This document shows, one piece after another, positions 15,001 to 21,000 of a stretch of 64,000 bases of DNA; position 1 is the first letter of the stretch, and the number at the start of each line of letters is the position of its first letter. Position numbers: made by a program. The DNA comes from Escherichia phage PA36. The stretch lies in sequence record KP682386.1; one strand, written 5' to 3'.

Positions 15001-18000
15001 TGAGATAAATCATCATGGTATAGCGGCGTATTGCTCCCATCTTCCTGATGACGTTGACATTGATGAAATGGAAAGGGAGATGAAGCAATGACCATCTACA
15101 TCACTGAGCTAATAACAGGCCTGCTGGTAATCGCAGGCCTTTTTATTTGGGGGAGAGGGAAGTGAACGATAGCTACCGACAGTTTGAAAACTGGTGGTCA
15201 AAAGACAAAAGCCAGTTCACGGGAGACGATGAATTAAAAGAGTTTGCCTGGGTGATATGGCAGGCATCGCGCTCTGCTATTGAACTGGATATCGACTGGC
15301 CCGAATCGAATGACGACTTTTGGAAAGATGGTGAAGAAGGTGCTTATGCGATGGGTTATGAGGATGGGCGTGACAAAACGGTAATTGCAGTAATGAAAGC
15401 CATCAGGGCCGCAGGAATCAAAGAAAAGAATTTCGATTAAGCAAATATCACTTCAATAAATCGCTTTTAAGGCATCACAATCGCTCTGTAGCGAGGTAAA
15501 CGCGTGCAAGGCATGCCAATAAGCAGCGAGAATGAAAAATGCGTCAGAATGTGTTTGAGGAGGTTTTAAGAAATGAGTACGATAGCTGAGCTTGTCAGGG
15601 CTAATTTTCGTGAAGAGTTGGTGCGTTGGTATCGGTATCGTTCATCGTCCAGTTTGCCGCTTGATGAGTTGTATGAGCATTCACCTGCCGCACGACGCTA
15701 TCCGCGTGACCGTGTTCTTCGACGGTTGTTCAAACTCAACAATGAGTTTCAGCGCAACAGAATTATCCGGAGTCTGGATTTAAAGTGAAGGAGTGAGCAT
15801 GAGCGACCTATCATTAACCCAGCCAAAGCTAAAAGAATGTCCGTTTTGCGGCGGTAATGCTCGTCTGTGGGTTGAGGCCGGAATAAATATTGATGTGTGG
15901 GGCTATGCAGAATGTGACCTCTGTGAAGCCAGGGGGGCATGGGCACCATCAGTTGCTGCGGCGGCTGAAAAATGGAACCGGAGAGCAGGAGATGAAGCAA
16001 ACCTTTCTGCTTCGCAACGAAGCAATCAGAAATAACGCCATAGACGCCATTCTCTCACTACCCATCGACGACAAGTCACCCCACGAAGTCCACGTTAAAG
16101 AACCCAAGCGCAGCAAAGCGCAGAATGACCGTATGTGGCCGATGCTGAACGATGTTTCGCGTCAGGTGCTATGGCATGGTCAACGGCTGGCGCCGGAAGA
16201 CTGGAAAGACCTGTTCACTGCCCTGTGGCTTAAGACCAAAAAACTGGAGCAACGAAGTGTGCCTGGTATCGACGGTGGCGTTGTCATGCTTGGCGTGCGT
16301 ACCAGCAAAATGCGGAAGGCCAGCATGACTGAGCTTATCGAAATCATGTTCTGGTTCGGCTCAGAGCGCAACGTGCGGTGGAGTGATGACTCCCGGCGAG
16401 AGTATGAATGGTCACAACGAAAAGGTAGGGCTGCATGACTATCAAATCAAATACGCCAGCACACGACAAGGACTGCTGGCAAACGCCGCTTTGGCTTTTT
16501 GATGCACTGGATATTGAGTTTGGATTCTGGCTGGATTCGGCAGCGAGCGACAAAAATGCTCTGTGCGCTCACTGGCTAACTGAGGCCGACGACGCGCTCA
16601 ATTCTGAGTGGGTAAGCCACGGTGCAATCTGGAATAACCCACCGTACAGCAATATCAGGCCGTGGGTGGAAAAAGCCGCTGAGCAGTGCATACAACAGCG
16701 ACAGACGGTAGTTATGCTTGTGCCAGAGGATATGTCAGTCGGATGGTTCAGCAAGGCTCTGGAGAGTGTTGACGAAGTTCGCATCATCACTGATGGACGG
16801 ATTAATTTTATCGAACCATCGACAGGGCTGGAGAAGAAGGGAAACAGCAAAGGCTCCATGCTGCTGATTTGGCGACCGTTCATCAGTCCTCGACGAATGT
16901 TTACTACTGTATCCAAAGCGGCATTGATGGCGATCGGGCAGGGCGTCAGGAGGGCGGCATGAGGCGACAGCGACGAAGTATCACCGACATCATCTGCGAA
17001 AACTGCAAATACCTTCCAACGAAACGCTCCAGAAATAAACGCAAGCCAATCCCAAAAGAATCTGACGTAAAAACCTTCAATTACACGGCTCACCTGTGGG
17101 ATATCCGGTGGCTAAGACATCGTGCGAGGAAAACAAGGTGATTGACGCGATGATTTATTCGGGGCTATATTCCTCACGCGCCAGCAAAATCTGGCGTCGG
17201 GATTGGCGTCCTGGATAGAGACCGCGACAGATACACGCCGCGAGCGTGTTTTTTATTGTCGTATGCACGCGCACATCTGAATTATGGTGGGCTGTGTGGG
17301 GGCGGAGAGATCCGCGCCGGTCGGTTTCCCGGTTACGCCAACCCTGCACAGTTCACCACCAGACGATTGGCGTCGTCGGTGGTGAGTTATTAAGAAACCA
17401 CCAGAGGGCGTCATTATGACAACTCAAATTTCTGTTGAAACTCTCTCCCCGATCACCCATAACCAGATTCCTGTTATTACCACCGAACTTTTGGCGCAGC
17501 TTTACGGCACTGAGCCGGTGCGTATTCGCCAGAATCATCATGAGAACAAAGTACGCTTCGTTGAAGGGAAACACTTTTTCAAAGTTGTTGGTAATGACCT
17601 TAAAGAATTGCGGGTAGCTTTAAACTACTCACAAAATTTGCGGGTTACTTTAAGTAACTCACAAAATTTGCAACCATCTTTAAGAGGGTTACAAATTTCC
17701 CCGAAAGCCCGCTCCCTCATACTCTGGACAGAACGAGGCGCAGCCCGTCACGCAAAAATGCTCGAAACTGATCAGGCGTGGGATGTGTTCGAAAAACTGG
17801 AAGACTGCTATTTCAGCCAGTGCGAGAAAAATACTGGCAAACAAGAGAAGAAGCTCAACGGGCTTTCCGCAAAAGAAACAGACAGCCTTGTATGGCTGTG
17901 GGATTATGCCAACCGCTCACAGGCATTGTTCCGTGAGTTGTATCCCGCATTAAAACTGATTCAGTCTGGCTATTCCGGCATATGCCACGACTACGGCTAT

Positions 18001-21000
18001 GAGTTCTCGTATATCATCGGGAGGGCGAGGGGCGTTTTAATTAATCACACGCGGGATATAGATATTTATGAGCCTGACGGGCCGACGAACCTTCTGGCAT
18101 GGGAAAGGCTTAAGAACAAAGAGTTGCCGCCTTCACTGCATCGCTACTGACAATTGACAACTTAACAAACCCAGCTTCGGCTGGGTTTTTTATTGCTGAA
18201 TTTTCAATGTGAGAGGACATGACAATGAATGAGCTGATAAATAGCAATGCCATCAAAATGACAAGCATTGAAATCGCTGAGTTGGTGGGAAGCCGTCATG
18301 ACAAGGTGAAACAATCCATTGAACGACTGGCGGTTCGAGGTGTGATCCGAAATCCCCCAATGGTGGTTTTCGAAAAAATCAATAACTTAGGATTACTTCG
18401 TGGCGTAGAGGCTTACGTTTTTGAGGGCGAACAAGGTAAGCGCGACAGCATTATTGTCGTTGCCCAGTTGTCGCCGGAATTCACCGCTCGCCTTGTTGAC
18501 CGCTGGCGAGAACTCGAAGGGGCAACCGCGAAAATACCACAAACCTTTTCTGAGGCATTGCGCCTTGCGGCCGACCTTGAAGACCAGAAGGCTGAACTGG
18601 AGAAACAGCTTGCTCTCGCAGCACCTAAAGTTGAGTTTGCCGATCGCGTTGGCGAGGCCAGCGGAATTTTGATTGGAAACTTTGCAAAGGTTGTTGGTAT
18701 TGGTCCAAACAAACTGTTTGCGTGGATGCGCGATCACAAAATCCTTATTGCTTCAGGCTCCCGGCGCAATGTGCCAATGCAGGAATATATGGATCGTGGC
18801 TATTTCACAGTGAAAGAAACAGCGGTCAATACAAATCACGGAATACAGATATCGTTCACCACAAAAATCACCGGGCGTGGTCAACAGTGGCTGACCAGAA
18901 AGCTGCTCGATAACGGAATGCTGAAAGTAACAAGGGAGGCTGCTTAATGGCTAAACCAGCGCGAAGGAAATGCAAAATATGCAAGGAATGGTTTCACCCG
19001 GCATTCTCAAATCAGTGGTGGTGCTGCCCGGAACACGGAACTCAATTAGCACTCGAACGACGAAGTAAAGAACGCGAAAAAGCGGAAAAAGCAGCAGAGA
19101 AGAAACGACGACGAGAGGAGCAGAAACAGAAAGATAAACTGAAGATTCGAAAACTCGCCTTAAAGCCCCGCAGTTACTGGATTAAACAAGCCCAACAAGC
19201 CGTAAACGCCTTCATCAGAGAAAGAGACCGCGACTTACCATGTATCTCGTGCGGAACGCTCACGTCTGCTCAGTGGGATGCCGGACATTACCGGACAACT
19301 GCTGCGGCACCTCAACTCCGATTTGATGAACGCAATATTCACAAGCAATGCGTGGTGTGCAACCAGCACAAAAGCGGAAATCTCGTTCCGTATCGCGTCG
19401 AACTGATTAACCGCATCGGGCAGGAAGCAGTAGACGAAATCGAATCGAACCATAACCGCCATCGCTGGACTGTCGAAGAATGCAGGGCGATCAAGGCGAA
19501 GTATCAGCAGAAACTTAAAGACCTGCGAAACAGCAGAAGTGAGGCCGCATGACGTTCACAGTAAAAACCATTCCAGACATGCTCGTTGAGGCATATGAAA
19601 ATCAGACCGAGGTAGCCAGAATACTGAACTGTAGTCGCAACACGGTCAGAAAATACACTGGCGATAAAGAAGGGAAAAGACACGCTATCGTCAACGGTGT
19701 TCTTATGGTTCACCGCGGATGGGGTAAAGATACTGATGCGTGATATCCGGCAGGTTCTTGAGCGCTGGGGGGCATGGGCGGCAAATAACTATGAGGATGT
19801 TACATGGTCGCCCATTGCTGCCGGATTTAAGGGACTGATCCCCGAAAAAGTAAAATCACGTCCACAGTGCTGTGACGATGATGCGATGGTGATATGCGGG
19901 TGCATAGCCCGCCTTTACCGGAACAATCGCGATCTGCATGACTTGCTGGTTGATTATTACGTGTTGGGGGAGACGTTCATGGCGTTGGCACGGAAACATG
20001 GGTGCTCTGACACCTGTATAGGTAAACGCCTTCACAAAGCGGAGGGGATTGTTGAAGGCATGCTGATGATGCTGGGAGTGAGGCTTGAGATGGATCGGTA
20101 TGTTGAGCGTGAATTGCCGGGAGGGAGAACCTCTGTATTTTATCAGCGAAAAAATAGTTTACGATCGTAAAAATCTGCATATCATGATAAGAGTGGTTAC
20201 ATTGCCACGCAGTCGAACCCGCCGATGCGCGGGTTTTTTTGTACCCCGAATCCTGTGAGCTATACGGAAAGTACACAGAAAGGAAGGTGCGACCGTAATT
20301 AATAACAAAATCTTAAAAATCGCATATAGCACTATTAGTTTTCTAAATATTGTATATTTTAAGTATTGCAGGATAACCCTGTAACGAAGTTTGCGTAACA
20401 GCATTTTGCTCTACGAGTTTGCCAGCCTCCCCCAGTGGCTGGCTTTTTTATGTCCGTAGCGTCAAAGCAGCAATGGCGCTAGGGCGTCGTGCAATTGGCG
20501 TTGAGCTGGAGAGCGGGCGTTTTGAGCAGACGGTCAGGGAAGTTCAGAATGTAGTCAGTCAGAACGGATGATATTGCAGGATTAGTTACGTACCGTTATT
20601 ATCCTGCGCCCGGCCCTTTAGCTCAGTGGTGAGAGCGAGCGACTCATAATCGCCAGGTCGCTGGTTCAAATCCAGCAAGGGCCACCATATCACATACCGC
20701 CATTAGCTCATCGGGACAGAGCGCCAGCCTTCGAAGCTGGCTGCGCGGGGTTCGAGTCCTCGATGGCGGTCCATTATCTGCATTATGCGTTGTTAGCTCA
20801 GCCGGACAGAGCAATTGCCTTCTGAGCAATCGGTCACTGGTTCGAATCCAGTACAACGCGCCATATTTATTTACCAGGCTCGCTTTTGCGGGCCTTTTTT
20901 ATATCTGCGCCGGGTCTGGTGCTGATTACTTCAGCCAAAAGGAACACCTGTATATGAAGTGTATATTATTTAAATGGGTACTGTGCCTGTTACTGGGTTT

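Follow-up and report, generated by a model that had tools for sequence, protein, structure and literature searches.

A putative antisense-gated ant cassette, separate from roi, in the nin region of the Stx2a phage PA36

In phages P1 and P7, the immI locus (c4-icd-ant1/2) is controlled by C4, an antisense RNA that blocks the antirepressor from the same transcript (Citron and Schuster 1990, as cited in PMC7313666 and PMC2864571). C4 lies between an upstream pair of short sequences, a1/b1, and a downstream pair, a2/b2, as it does in the leader described below, and the loop sequences set its specificity. In the prophage Gifsy-1, Hershko-Shalev et al. 2016 (PMC4825925) report that the promoter PisrK drives transcription of anrP, the message of which is not translated, and that the small RNA (sRNA) IsrK, supplied in trans, raises anrP translation 139-fold in Salmonella. 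The same study describes an RNA pairing established by the compensatory mutants G28A/C162U and G31A/C159U, an RNA of ~80 nucleotides processed from 'orf45', and a protein, AnrP, that raises antQ-operon RNA and, when overexpressed, induces Gifsy-1. Here, a stretch of 64,000 nucleotides from Escherichia phage PA36 (KP682386.1; the whole stretch is called the window) is considered with respect to four genes of antirepressor-type families: ant (gene 1) and roi (gene 2) in the nin region, a second ant (gene 3) in the lysis cassette and an antirepressor-like gene at the right end (gene 4). The explanation that we regard as probable, taken as a whole, is that genes 1 and 2 belong to two separate units rather than forming a pair of equivalent antirepressors, with an RNA-gated ant cassette followed by roi, a parallel leader ahead of gene 4 and an unguarded gene 3.

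Judged by sequence identity, the window is a Stx2a prophage of the VT2-Sakai/Sp5 type. Positions 16400-19600 are 100% identical to VT2-Sakai, Stx2 II, the PA-series Stx2a phages and Sp5 of E. coli O157:H7 Sakai, and Stx2A and Stx2B are encoded at 20954-22194. In VT2-Sakai, gene 1 is named ant (VT2-Sap37) and gene 2 roi (VT2-Sap38), the two being placed between a NinE-family gene and NinG, while gene 3 is again named ant (VT2-Sap48) and lies between R and Rz. Gene 4 corresponds to ECs_1251, a 'phage antirepressor' and the final gene before the right end (attR) of Sp5. The notion that it lies outside the prophage was rejected, as it is found inside Sp5, in the VT2-Sakai record and in the 933W record (as L0142). 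The order Ant ('lytic induction enhancer') and then Roi has been described for Phi24B, Min27, VT2-Sa, Stx2 II and 1717 by Smith et al. (PMC3430580), who give 78% identity between the Ant proteins of VT2-Sa and Phi24B and describe Roi solely as implicated in lytic growth. Antirepressors have been tabulated for Sp5 and most other lambdoid prophages of Sakai by Asadulghani et al. (PMC2669165), and Ant was found in 126 of 279 Stx phages by Pinto et al. (PMC8136144).

The four genes are real, ordinary and long annotated (VT2-Sakai, 933W, Sp5), and the original prediction, which had singled them out as antirepressor-type genes, states what was already known. Their open reading frames (ORFs) lie exactly where it had placed them, all match PHROG 'anti-repressor' families (E<=1e-86) and contain the Pfam domains it had named. 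Its placing of genes 1 and 2 between ninE and ninG, of a terminator between them, of gene 3 inside the lysis cassette and of gene 4 at the right end was likewise borne out. No further paralogs were detected when the four proteins were compared by BLASTP with all window ORFs of at least 50 amino acids, and NCBIfam gave no match for any of the four. What had been missed are the RNA elements immediately 5' of genes 1 and 4. These control elements, together with a general pattern for the sRNA-Xcc1 family, are the additions made here.

RNA elements in the leader of ant

An Rfam scan at gathering thresholds calls isrK (RF01394) at 17178-17254 (75.5 bits, cut-off 50), c4-a1b1 (RF03163) at 17165-17217 (50.5 bits, cut-off 46.7) and, 3' of both, a C4 RNA (Table 1). 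The decoy loops of the upstream element read CAAAATC (a1, 17185-17191) and ATTGGCG (b1, 17202-17208), and its 3' hairpin, with the stem at 17233-17249 and a T-run, is the terminator that follows ninE. C4 contains the segments a' (GGTTTC, 17323-17328) and b' (CGCCAA, 17336-17341). Immediately 3' of C4, b2 is an exact 7-nucleotide repeat of b1, and the a' loop is complementary to a2, which lies directly ahead of the Shine-Dalgarno (SD) sequence of gene 1. Unconstrained RNAduplex predictions of full-length C4 against its flanks were uninformative and were replaced by duplexes of core regions compared with shuffles and by comparisons of cognate with non-cognate pairs. The C4 core binds the gene 1 target stretch with a calculated energy of -27.7 kcal/mol, as against -18.8 ± 3.0 for shuffles, of which 3 in 500 reach -27.7.

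The region 17135-17440 aligns with isrK-orf45-anrP of Gifsy-1 at 89% DNA identity. Both promoter hexamers, the terminator, b1/b'/b2 and the initiation region are kept, and the a'/a2 pair covaries, being GGUUUC/GAAACC in the window and GGUGAU/AUCACC in Gifsy-1, with compensatory changes also in the inner C4 hairpin. On this alignment, the Gifsy-1 compensatory mutants would map to b1 (ATTGGCG) and b' (CGCCAA). Reading frames across 17246-17419 vary among relatives, and in P0020 and P0026 the upstream ORF is fused to Ant, giving proteins of 274-278 amino acids. Such variation across the C4 region fits conservation of the RNA rather than of a peptide, and the orf34 of the annotation probably does not represent a genuine protein gene.

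The interval 17142-18197 may be viewed as an 'ant moron' that is self-contained, gated by RNA and placed between ninE and roi. Its constitutive-looking promoter would produce an IsrK-type RNA that mostly ends at its own terminator, while in read-through RNA the antisense RNA of the C4 type would be followed by the message of ant. Through its exposed a' and b' segments, C4 is predicted to pair with a2 and b2 at the ribosome-binding region, leaving ant transcribed but untranslated; the short IsrK RNA bears the decoys a1 and b1 and, when abundant, could titrate C4 and turn translation on. At the other end of the cassette, a 9-bp GC-rich stem (18167-18188) is followed by TTTTATTG, a strong terminator that would halt the cassette transcript ahead of roi. 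After induction, N-modified transcription from pR would also traverse the cassette. The anatomy, the homology and the complementarity are observed, and the Gifsy-1 switch is the work of others; from these we infer that the switch of the window would operate as in Gifsy-1.

In Phi24B, deletion of ant reduced a pR'-lux late reporter to 27-56% of wild type after norfloxacin, a plasmid copy mostly restored it, and superinfection and immunity were unaffected (Fogg et al., PMC3064807). Weak expression of ant was reported in uninduced Phi24B lysogens (PMC3064807), which fits a promoter of its own. The window protein, which combines an ORF6N domain with the C-domain of P22 Ant, may likewise accelerate commitment of the phage to late gene expression, and most likely it would do so by binding a CI-type repressor, although this protein target is our inference.

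Several points weigh against this account. The duplex energies are only ~2.5-3 standard deviations better than those of shuffles. Window and Gifsy-1 share an identical a1 loop despite their different a' sequences, which makes the a1/a' pairing doubtful. The ORF that starts at ATG 17284, the homologue of the first orf45 AUG, stops at 17383-17385 without overlapping the ant AUG; since it ends before that codon, the translational coupling of Gifsy-1 may not apply, and coupling of the AUGA type is uncertain. The annotated orf34 does overlap the ant start (ATGA) but lacks a convincing start of its own. On the protein side, the AlphaFold2 model of gene 1 is poor, with a mean pLDDT (predicted local distance difference test) of 51 and only the ORF6N core at 60-83. 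It was built on a shallow alignment of 17 close homologs (the top 120 homologue matches are all at least 81% identical), and Foldseek found no PDB match for it with E<1; a PDB sequence search with genes 1 and 2 also gave nothing meaningful. With a poor model and no significant fold match, the biochemical role of either domain of gene 1 has to be read from family names and from P22. Action of Ant on CI is called possible but undemonstrated by Fogg et al. themselves (PMC3064807), and a literature search gave no experiment on the PA36 leader or proteins.

Within gene 1, at ~17603-17698, a loop of the ORF6N domain contains an in-frame tandem palindromic repeat of 30 bp (10 amino acids). Each palindrome is centred on CTTTAAG, with arms GTAG/CTAC, GTTAC/GTAAC or AACC.TCTT/AAGA.GGTT. 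The repeat is absent from P0034, P0059, PA28 and VT2phi_272, whereas relative to the window P0021 has one copy fewer and phage 1717, Nil2 and P0004 have one extra copy. Possible explanations are a minisatellite prone to hairpin formation, an array for protein binding or a product of template switching. An operator array for Roi or Ant may be considered as a candidate; the arms vary between units and phages yet remain palindromic, which hairpin formation or template-switch mutation would fit equally well.

The gene 4 leader and the sRNA-Xcc1 family

Ahead of gene 4, the same logic would recur with an RNA of the sRNA-Xcc1 family and a different, orthogonal pairing specificity. The Xcc1 consensus, with its outer stem, two inner hairpins and single-stranded linker, resembles that of C4. 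Ahead of gene 4, hairpin 2 has the loop CUUAUUUG (a', 63559-63552), complementary to CAAAUAAG (a2, 63501-63494), which abuts the SD sequence AGGAGG, and to an identical octamer upstream (a1, Table 1). The linker GGCUCAGUUGAC (b', 63552-63541) is complementary to codons 3-6 of gene 4 (b2, GUCAACUCAUCC, 63477-63466; ATG at 63484). The Xcc1 core binds the initiation region at -18.8 kcal/mol, compared with -11.8 ± 2.7 for shuffles. As gene 4 is encoded on the pL strand immediately beyond attP, read-through from pL could reach it only in an excised or infecting genome.

In five further cassettes (P13374 antB1, 2851 antB, two in POCJ13 and VHML ORF48) the loop and both of its sites change while complementarity is kept, and among the six cassettes compared the longest complementarity is found in the cognate pairs. 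IMG/VR was scanned for a pattern representing the first, conserved hairpin of Xcc1, which yielded 86 unique cassettes; 65 different loop motifs occur among them. Between the Xcc1 core and the 30 nucleotides before the ORF, the longest run of Watson-Crick pairs has a mean of 7.08 in cognate and 4.91 in non-cognate combinations (Mann-Whitney p=2e-40); between core and upstream leader the values are 7.69 and 5.77 (p=1e-35). The elements lie ~40 nucleotides 5' of genes of the Ant/KilA-N/Rha/ORF6N/P22_AR_N type: the ORFs that follow begin with P22_AR_N in 27 cassettes, KilA-N in 20, AntA in 15, pRha in 8 (plus 2 weak matches) and ORF6N in 6, which amounts to 76-78 of the 86 (~90%).

In previous studies, sRNA-Xcc1 has been treated as a trans-acting virulence or integron sRNA, or noted 5' of an ORF6N gene in APSE (PMC12189769, PMC7313666). 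The joint proposition that it is a further, second family of antisense 'immunity' RNAs of the C4 type, that the phage carries two orthogonal RNA-gated cassettes and that polylysogens possess an RNA-level immunity code seems to us evenly balanced between true and false. If it is true, loop sequences would determine from which phages, incoming or resident, antirepressors can be expressed, and a widely annotated 'sRNA' would gain a general cis-linked function in many phages.

The original prediction had asked for the promoters and repressors in control of these genes. In the case of genes 1 and 4, the elements point to small antisense RNAs rather than to protein repressors or LexA. There are no LexA boxes near the four genes, CTGT-N8-ACAG occurring in the window only at 53836, 57994 and 60060, a count not above chance. 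In contrast to the small, LexA-controlled Gifsy antirepressors (GfoA/GfhA), the four window proteins are two-domain proteins of 189-244 amino acids without a nearby LexA box. Commitment of Stx2 phages to induction is of importance because toxin output follows induction, and by sequence it would be antisense-RNA switches, not CI or LexA, that keep at least two 'ant' genes silent. Possible handles on induction timing are therefore the amount of IsrK, the loops of C4 and Xcc1 and the sites that these loops target. Peroxide is an inducer of Stx phages. In Salmonella, IsrK rises on exposure to hydrogen peroxide (PMC4825925).

Near the gene 4 leader, a near-perfect palindrome of 47 bp (63775-63821; 22-nucleotide arms, 86% complementary, 3-nucleotide gap) lies 5' of the promoter-like site, and four TGCCCCAA repeats at 63847-63902, near the attR end, look like integrase arm-type sites.

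Table 1. Positions of the genes and of the predicted RNA and control elements. Positions refer to the window except in the last row
Feature	Position	Strand	Remarks
Sigma-70-like promoter, TTGACG-18-TATATT	17142..17171	+	3' edge of ninE; 10/12 consensus matches; counterpart of Gifsy-1 PisrK
IsrK-type sRNA/c4-a1b1 decoy element, including terminator	17165..17254	+	Two hairpins, then intrinsic terminator
C4-type antisense RNA	17280..17363	+	Rfam RF01695, 66.7 bits (cut-off 45); outer stem around two hairpins
Target sites and initiation region of gene 1	17366..17408	+	b2 ATTGGCG 17366-17372; a2 GAAACC 17394-17399; SD GAGGG 17404-17408
Gene 1, 'ant' (VT2-Sap37)	17416..18150	+	Pfam: ORF6N N-domain 68.3 bits; P22_AR_C C-domain 83.4 bits
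Intrinsic terminator closing the ant cassette	18167..18197	+	AAACCCAGC-TTCG-GCTGGGTTT and T-run
Gene 2, roi (VT2-Sap38)	18219..18947	+	ANT/KilAC 113.8 bits (cut-off 25.3); Phage_pRha 26.7 bits, below cut-off 29.9
Gene 3, 'ant' (VT2-Sap48)	27660..28229	+	P22_AR_N 154.6 bits; ORF11CD3 27.0 bits; between endolysin R and Rz
Gene 4 (ECs_1251; 933W L0142)	62855..63484, initiation region to 63501	-	AntA 95.2 bits; P22_AR_C 36.3 bits
sRNA-Xcc1-family RNA	63525..63613	-	Rfam RF02221, 69.1 bits (cut-off 53); ends 41 nucleotides before ATG 63484
Gene 4 leader decoy and terminator-like hairpin	63647..63690	-	a1 CAAAUAAG 63690-63683; CCGCA...UGCGG and U-run 63675-63647
Sigma-70-like promoter, TTGACA-18-CATACT	63703..63732	-	Upstream of gene 4 leader; conserved in P13374 and POCJ13
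Other sRNA-Xcc1 elements	L012 (phage 2851) 4987-5070; L013 1022-1111; L015 311-395, 846-931; L014 ~960-1060

Roi, gene 3 and the possible functions of the proteins

Sequence comparison identifies gene 2 as orthologous to Roi of HK022, where a 241-amino-acid ORF located between P and Q encodes it (84% identity over the full length, 202 of 241 residues, E=2e-148). Its true start is probably ATG 18225 rather than the annotated ATG 18219, two codons earlier, because HK022 Roi begins there and the spacing from the SD sequence GAGAGGA is better. HK022 Roi was reportedly found by Clerget and Boccard in 1996 to be a DNA-binding protein with a site in its own gene, beside an IHF site, and is said to block lytic growth in IHF mutants. 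The HK022-like part of roi contains a 16-nucleotide inverted repeat (18533-18548 and 18686-18701; 88% complementary, arms 137 nucleotides apart), which may be related to the reported binding of Roi within its own gene. In the proposed scheme, roi constitutes the second unit and would encode a DNA-binding early regulator expressed only by read-through from pR.

Gene 3 has neither a promoter-like site nor an Rfam RNA element upstream and is therefore presumably transcribed with the late operon. In the simplest reading it is presumably a late-operon passenger, which would make it the unguarded member of the four.

The original prediction had interpreted the four genes as layers of antirepressors. 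This interpretation stands insofar as the proteins belong to the Ant/KilA/Rha/ORF6N family of shuffled domains and gene 1 is tied to antirepressor biology; gene 2, however, is Roi, and to speak of four layers over-reads a family name. An alternative that we hold to be unlikely, though deserving serious consideration, is that the proteins are sequence-specific DNA-binding regulators of transcription or replication, 'antirepressor' being merely an inherited name. The N-terminal modules KilA-N, ORF6N, AntA, Rha and P22_AR_N were reportedly predicted to bind DNA by Iyer, Koonin and Aravind in 2002. The high identity of gene 2 to HK022 Roi agrees with such a role, and the only portion of gene 1 modelled with confidence, a small alpha/beta N-domain, has as its top Foldseek matches small MerR-type DNA binders, although these matches are not significant (all E>1). 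In Listeria, AriS combines a variable N-domain (AntA, Bro-N or pRha) with ANT/KilAC, the KilAC domain damping the SOS response, as opposed to inducing prophages, and the N-domain regulating phage genes (Azulay et al. 2022, PMC9043618). On the other hand, genetics has defined both P22 Ant and P1 Ant as antirepressors, as summarized in PMC3064807, PMC2629481 and PMC9043618, and AnrP expression induces Gifsy-1 (PMC4825925). Moreover, the tight antisense control over genes 1 and 4 would suit a product that endangers lysogeny.

Somewhat less probable still is the view, close to the original prediction, that four stacked antirepressors serve mainly to inactivate the repressors of other resident lambdoid prophages and so couple their induction to that of the Stx phage. 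Its best precedent is FsoA of Fels-1, which is encoded in the repressor-controlled early operon of its own phage, is dispensable for induction of Fels-1 and induces the heteroimmune Gifsy-2 via its repressor (PMC3121763). P22 Ant, to which the C-domain of gene 1 is closely related, inactivates lambda CI too, as cited in PMC3064807, and O157 Sakai carries many lambdoid prophages, most of them antirepressor-positive (PMC2669165). The presence of ant genes in most Sakai prophages, however, suggests a standard kit rather than phage-specific weapons. Deletion or overexpression of Phi24B ant left superinfection and lysogenization unchanged (PMC3064807). Furthermore, a Stx prophage has been reported to suppress, not to trigger, induction of a co-resident prophage through Cro (bioRxiv 10.1101/2025.01.01.630987), and gene 2 is Roi, which is not a demonstrated antirepressor. 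Gene 3 would be expressed too late for derepression of its own prophage, which leaves room for a role in trans. Targeting of other prophages is possible and plausible by precedent, above all for genes 3 and 4, whereas the Phi24B results point first to a role in the commitment of the phage itself.

It is improbable that Roi, and perhaps other members, act like AriS by damping the host SOS response (RecA) through ANT/KilAC and thereby set or synchronize the time at which all resident prophages are induced. The phenotype reported for HK022 Roi is one of IHF rather than of SOS. Although Roi has a weak pRha and a strong ANT/KilAC match, and the KilAC domain of AriS by itself prevents SOS induction, an activity that two homologs share, this effect was seen in Firmicutes only and on overexpression only, the native level promoting the phage lytic pathway (PMC9043618).

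Elsewhere in the window, identical matches to the ALIL pseudoknot, a frameshift signal of the IS3 family of insertion sequences (121.5 bits each), occur at 25208-25324 (-) and 49197-49313 (+). They point to two insertions of the IS629/IS1203 type, one in the interval between the stx region and the lysis genes and one in the late region, which would explain why window coordinates run ahead of those in VT2-Sakai and PA4-type records. Further RNA elements include STnc100 and the anti-sRNA AsxR just 3' of stx2B (22269-22528), a sok antitoxin RNA of a hok/sok-type module near the right end (60729-60903, -) and a lambda cIII thermoregulator element (7898-7956, -).

Comparison with known systems

Roi resembles AriS in that a variable N-domain is joined to ANT/KilAC at the C-terminus, although the pRha match of Roi falls below the cut-off and the hosts are distant. 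Between gene 2 and HK022 Roi, the C-terminal halves are nearly identical even in DNA, and both genes are placed just upstream of a ninG-like gene. In HK022, by contrast, no ant cassette lies upstream, and residues ~25-65 of the N-domain diverge from gene 2. Neither of the two lines of comparison makes Roi an antirepressor.

The Ant proteins of Phi24B and 2851 (Fogg et al. 2007, 2011; PMC3064807) are of the same family as gene 1 and occupy the same slot in the nin region, upstream of roi, and the leader of phage 2851 is 99% identical to that of the window. Relatives differ in how many copies of the repeat their ORF6N loop contains. Phages 2851 and Nil2 differ further in that a second, Xcc1-led ant gene follows the first. 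Their nin regions (loci L012 and L007, respectively) read isrK/C4-antA, IS629 (in 2851), sRNA-Xcc1-antB and then roi, while the old annotation describes ant as 'disrupted by a retrotransposon'.

With P22, similarity is confined to parts of Ant (BLASTP). The C-terminal 104 amino acids of gene 1 are 83% identical to P22 Ant residues 197-300, gene 3 carries ~127 N-terminal amino acids of P22 Ant (residues 10-136) at 50% identity, and the C-domain of gene 4 shows 32% identity. Each alignment covers one half only, and P22_AR_N and P22_AR_C do not occur together in gene 1, 3 or 4. Unlike P22 immI, the window has no homologs of Arc or Mnt and no sar RNA: tblastn with Arc and Mnt returned no meaningful match (the best one, with E=0.008, falls in a coiled-coil ORF at 61549-61680 that is unrelated), and sar had no match in the window at the Rfam gathering threshold. 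The modules of P22 Ant are thus split over three window proteins with other partners, as is typical of domain shuffling in this family, and this fits the 'ant moron' idea (PMC2629481).

The features of P1/P7 immI that are present at gene 1 are a C4 RNA directly 5' of ant, upstream a1/b1 copies and a2/b2 sites at the translation start. The proteins differ, as Ant1/Ant2 have been linked to AntA and KilAC-type domains (PMC9043618) while gene 1 combines ORF6N with P22_AR_C. In addition, no icd-like coupled ORF is clearly recognizable in the window, and its cassette lies inside a lambdoid nin region.

Gifsy-1 differs from the window in placement, its isrK locus lying downstream of Q rather than between ninE and roi, and in a'/a2 specificity. 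A 2-nucleotide indel in the window ends the homologous upstream ORF 31 nucleotides before the ant AUG. The available text of the Gifsy-1 study does not equate 'orf45' with a C4 RNA (PMC4825925). The N-domain of gene 1 is 63% identical to that of AnrP, the first 27 residues being identical, whereas the C-domain of AnrP is unrelated to the P22 Ant C-domain of gene 1. In both loci, however, Rfam calls isrK, C4 and c4-a1b1, and the same order is found: a promoter, IsrK with its terminator, a C4-like segment and the initiation region.

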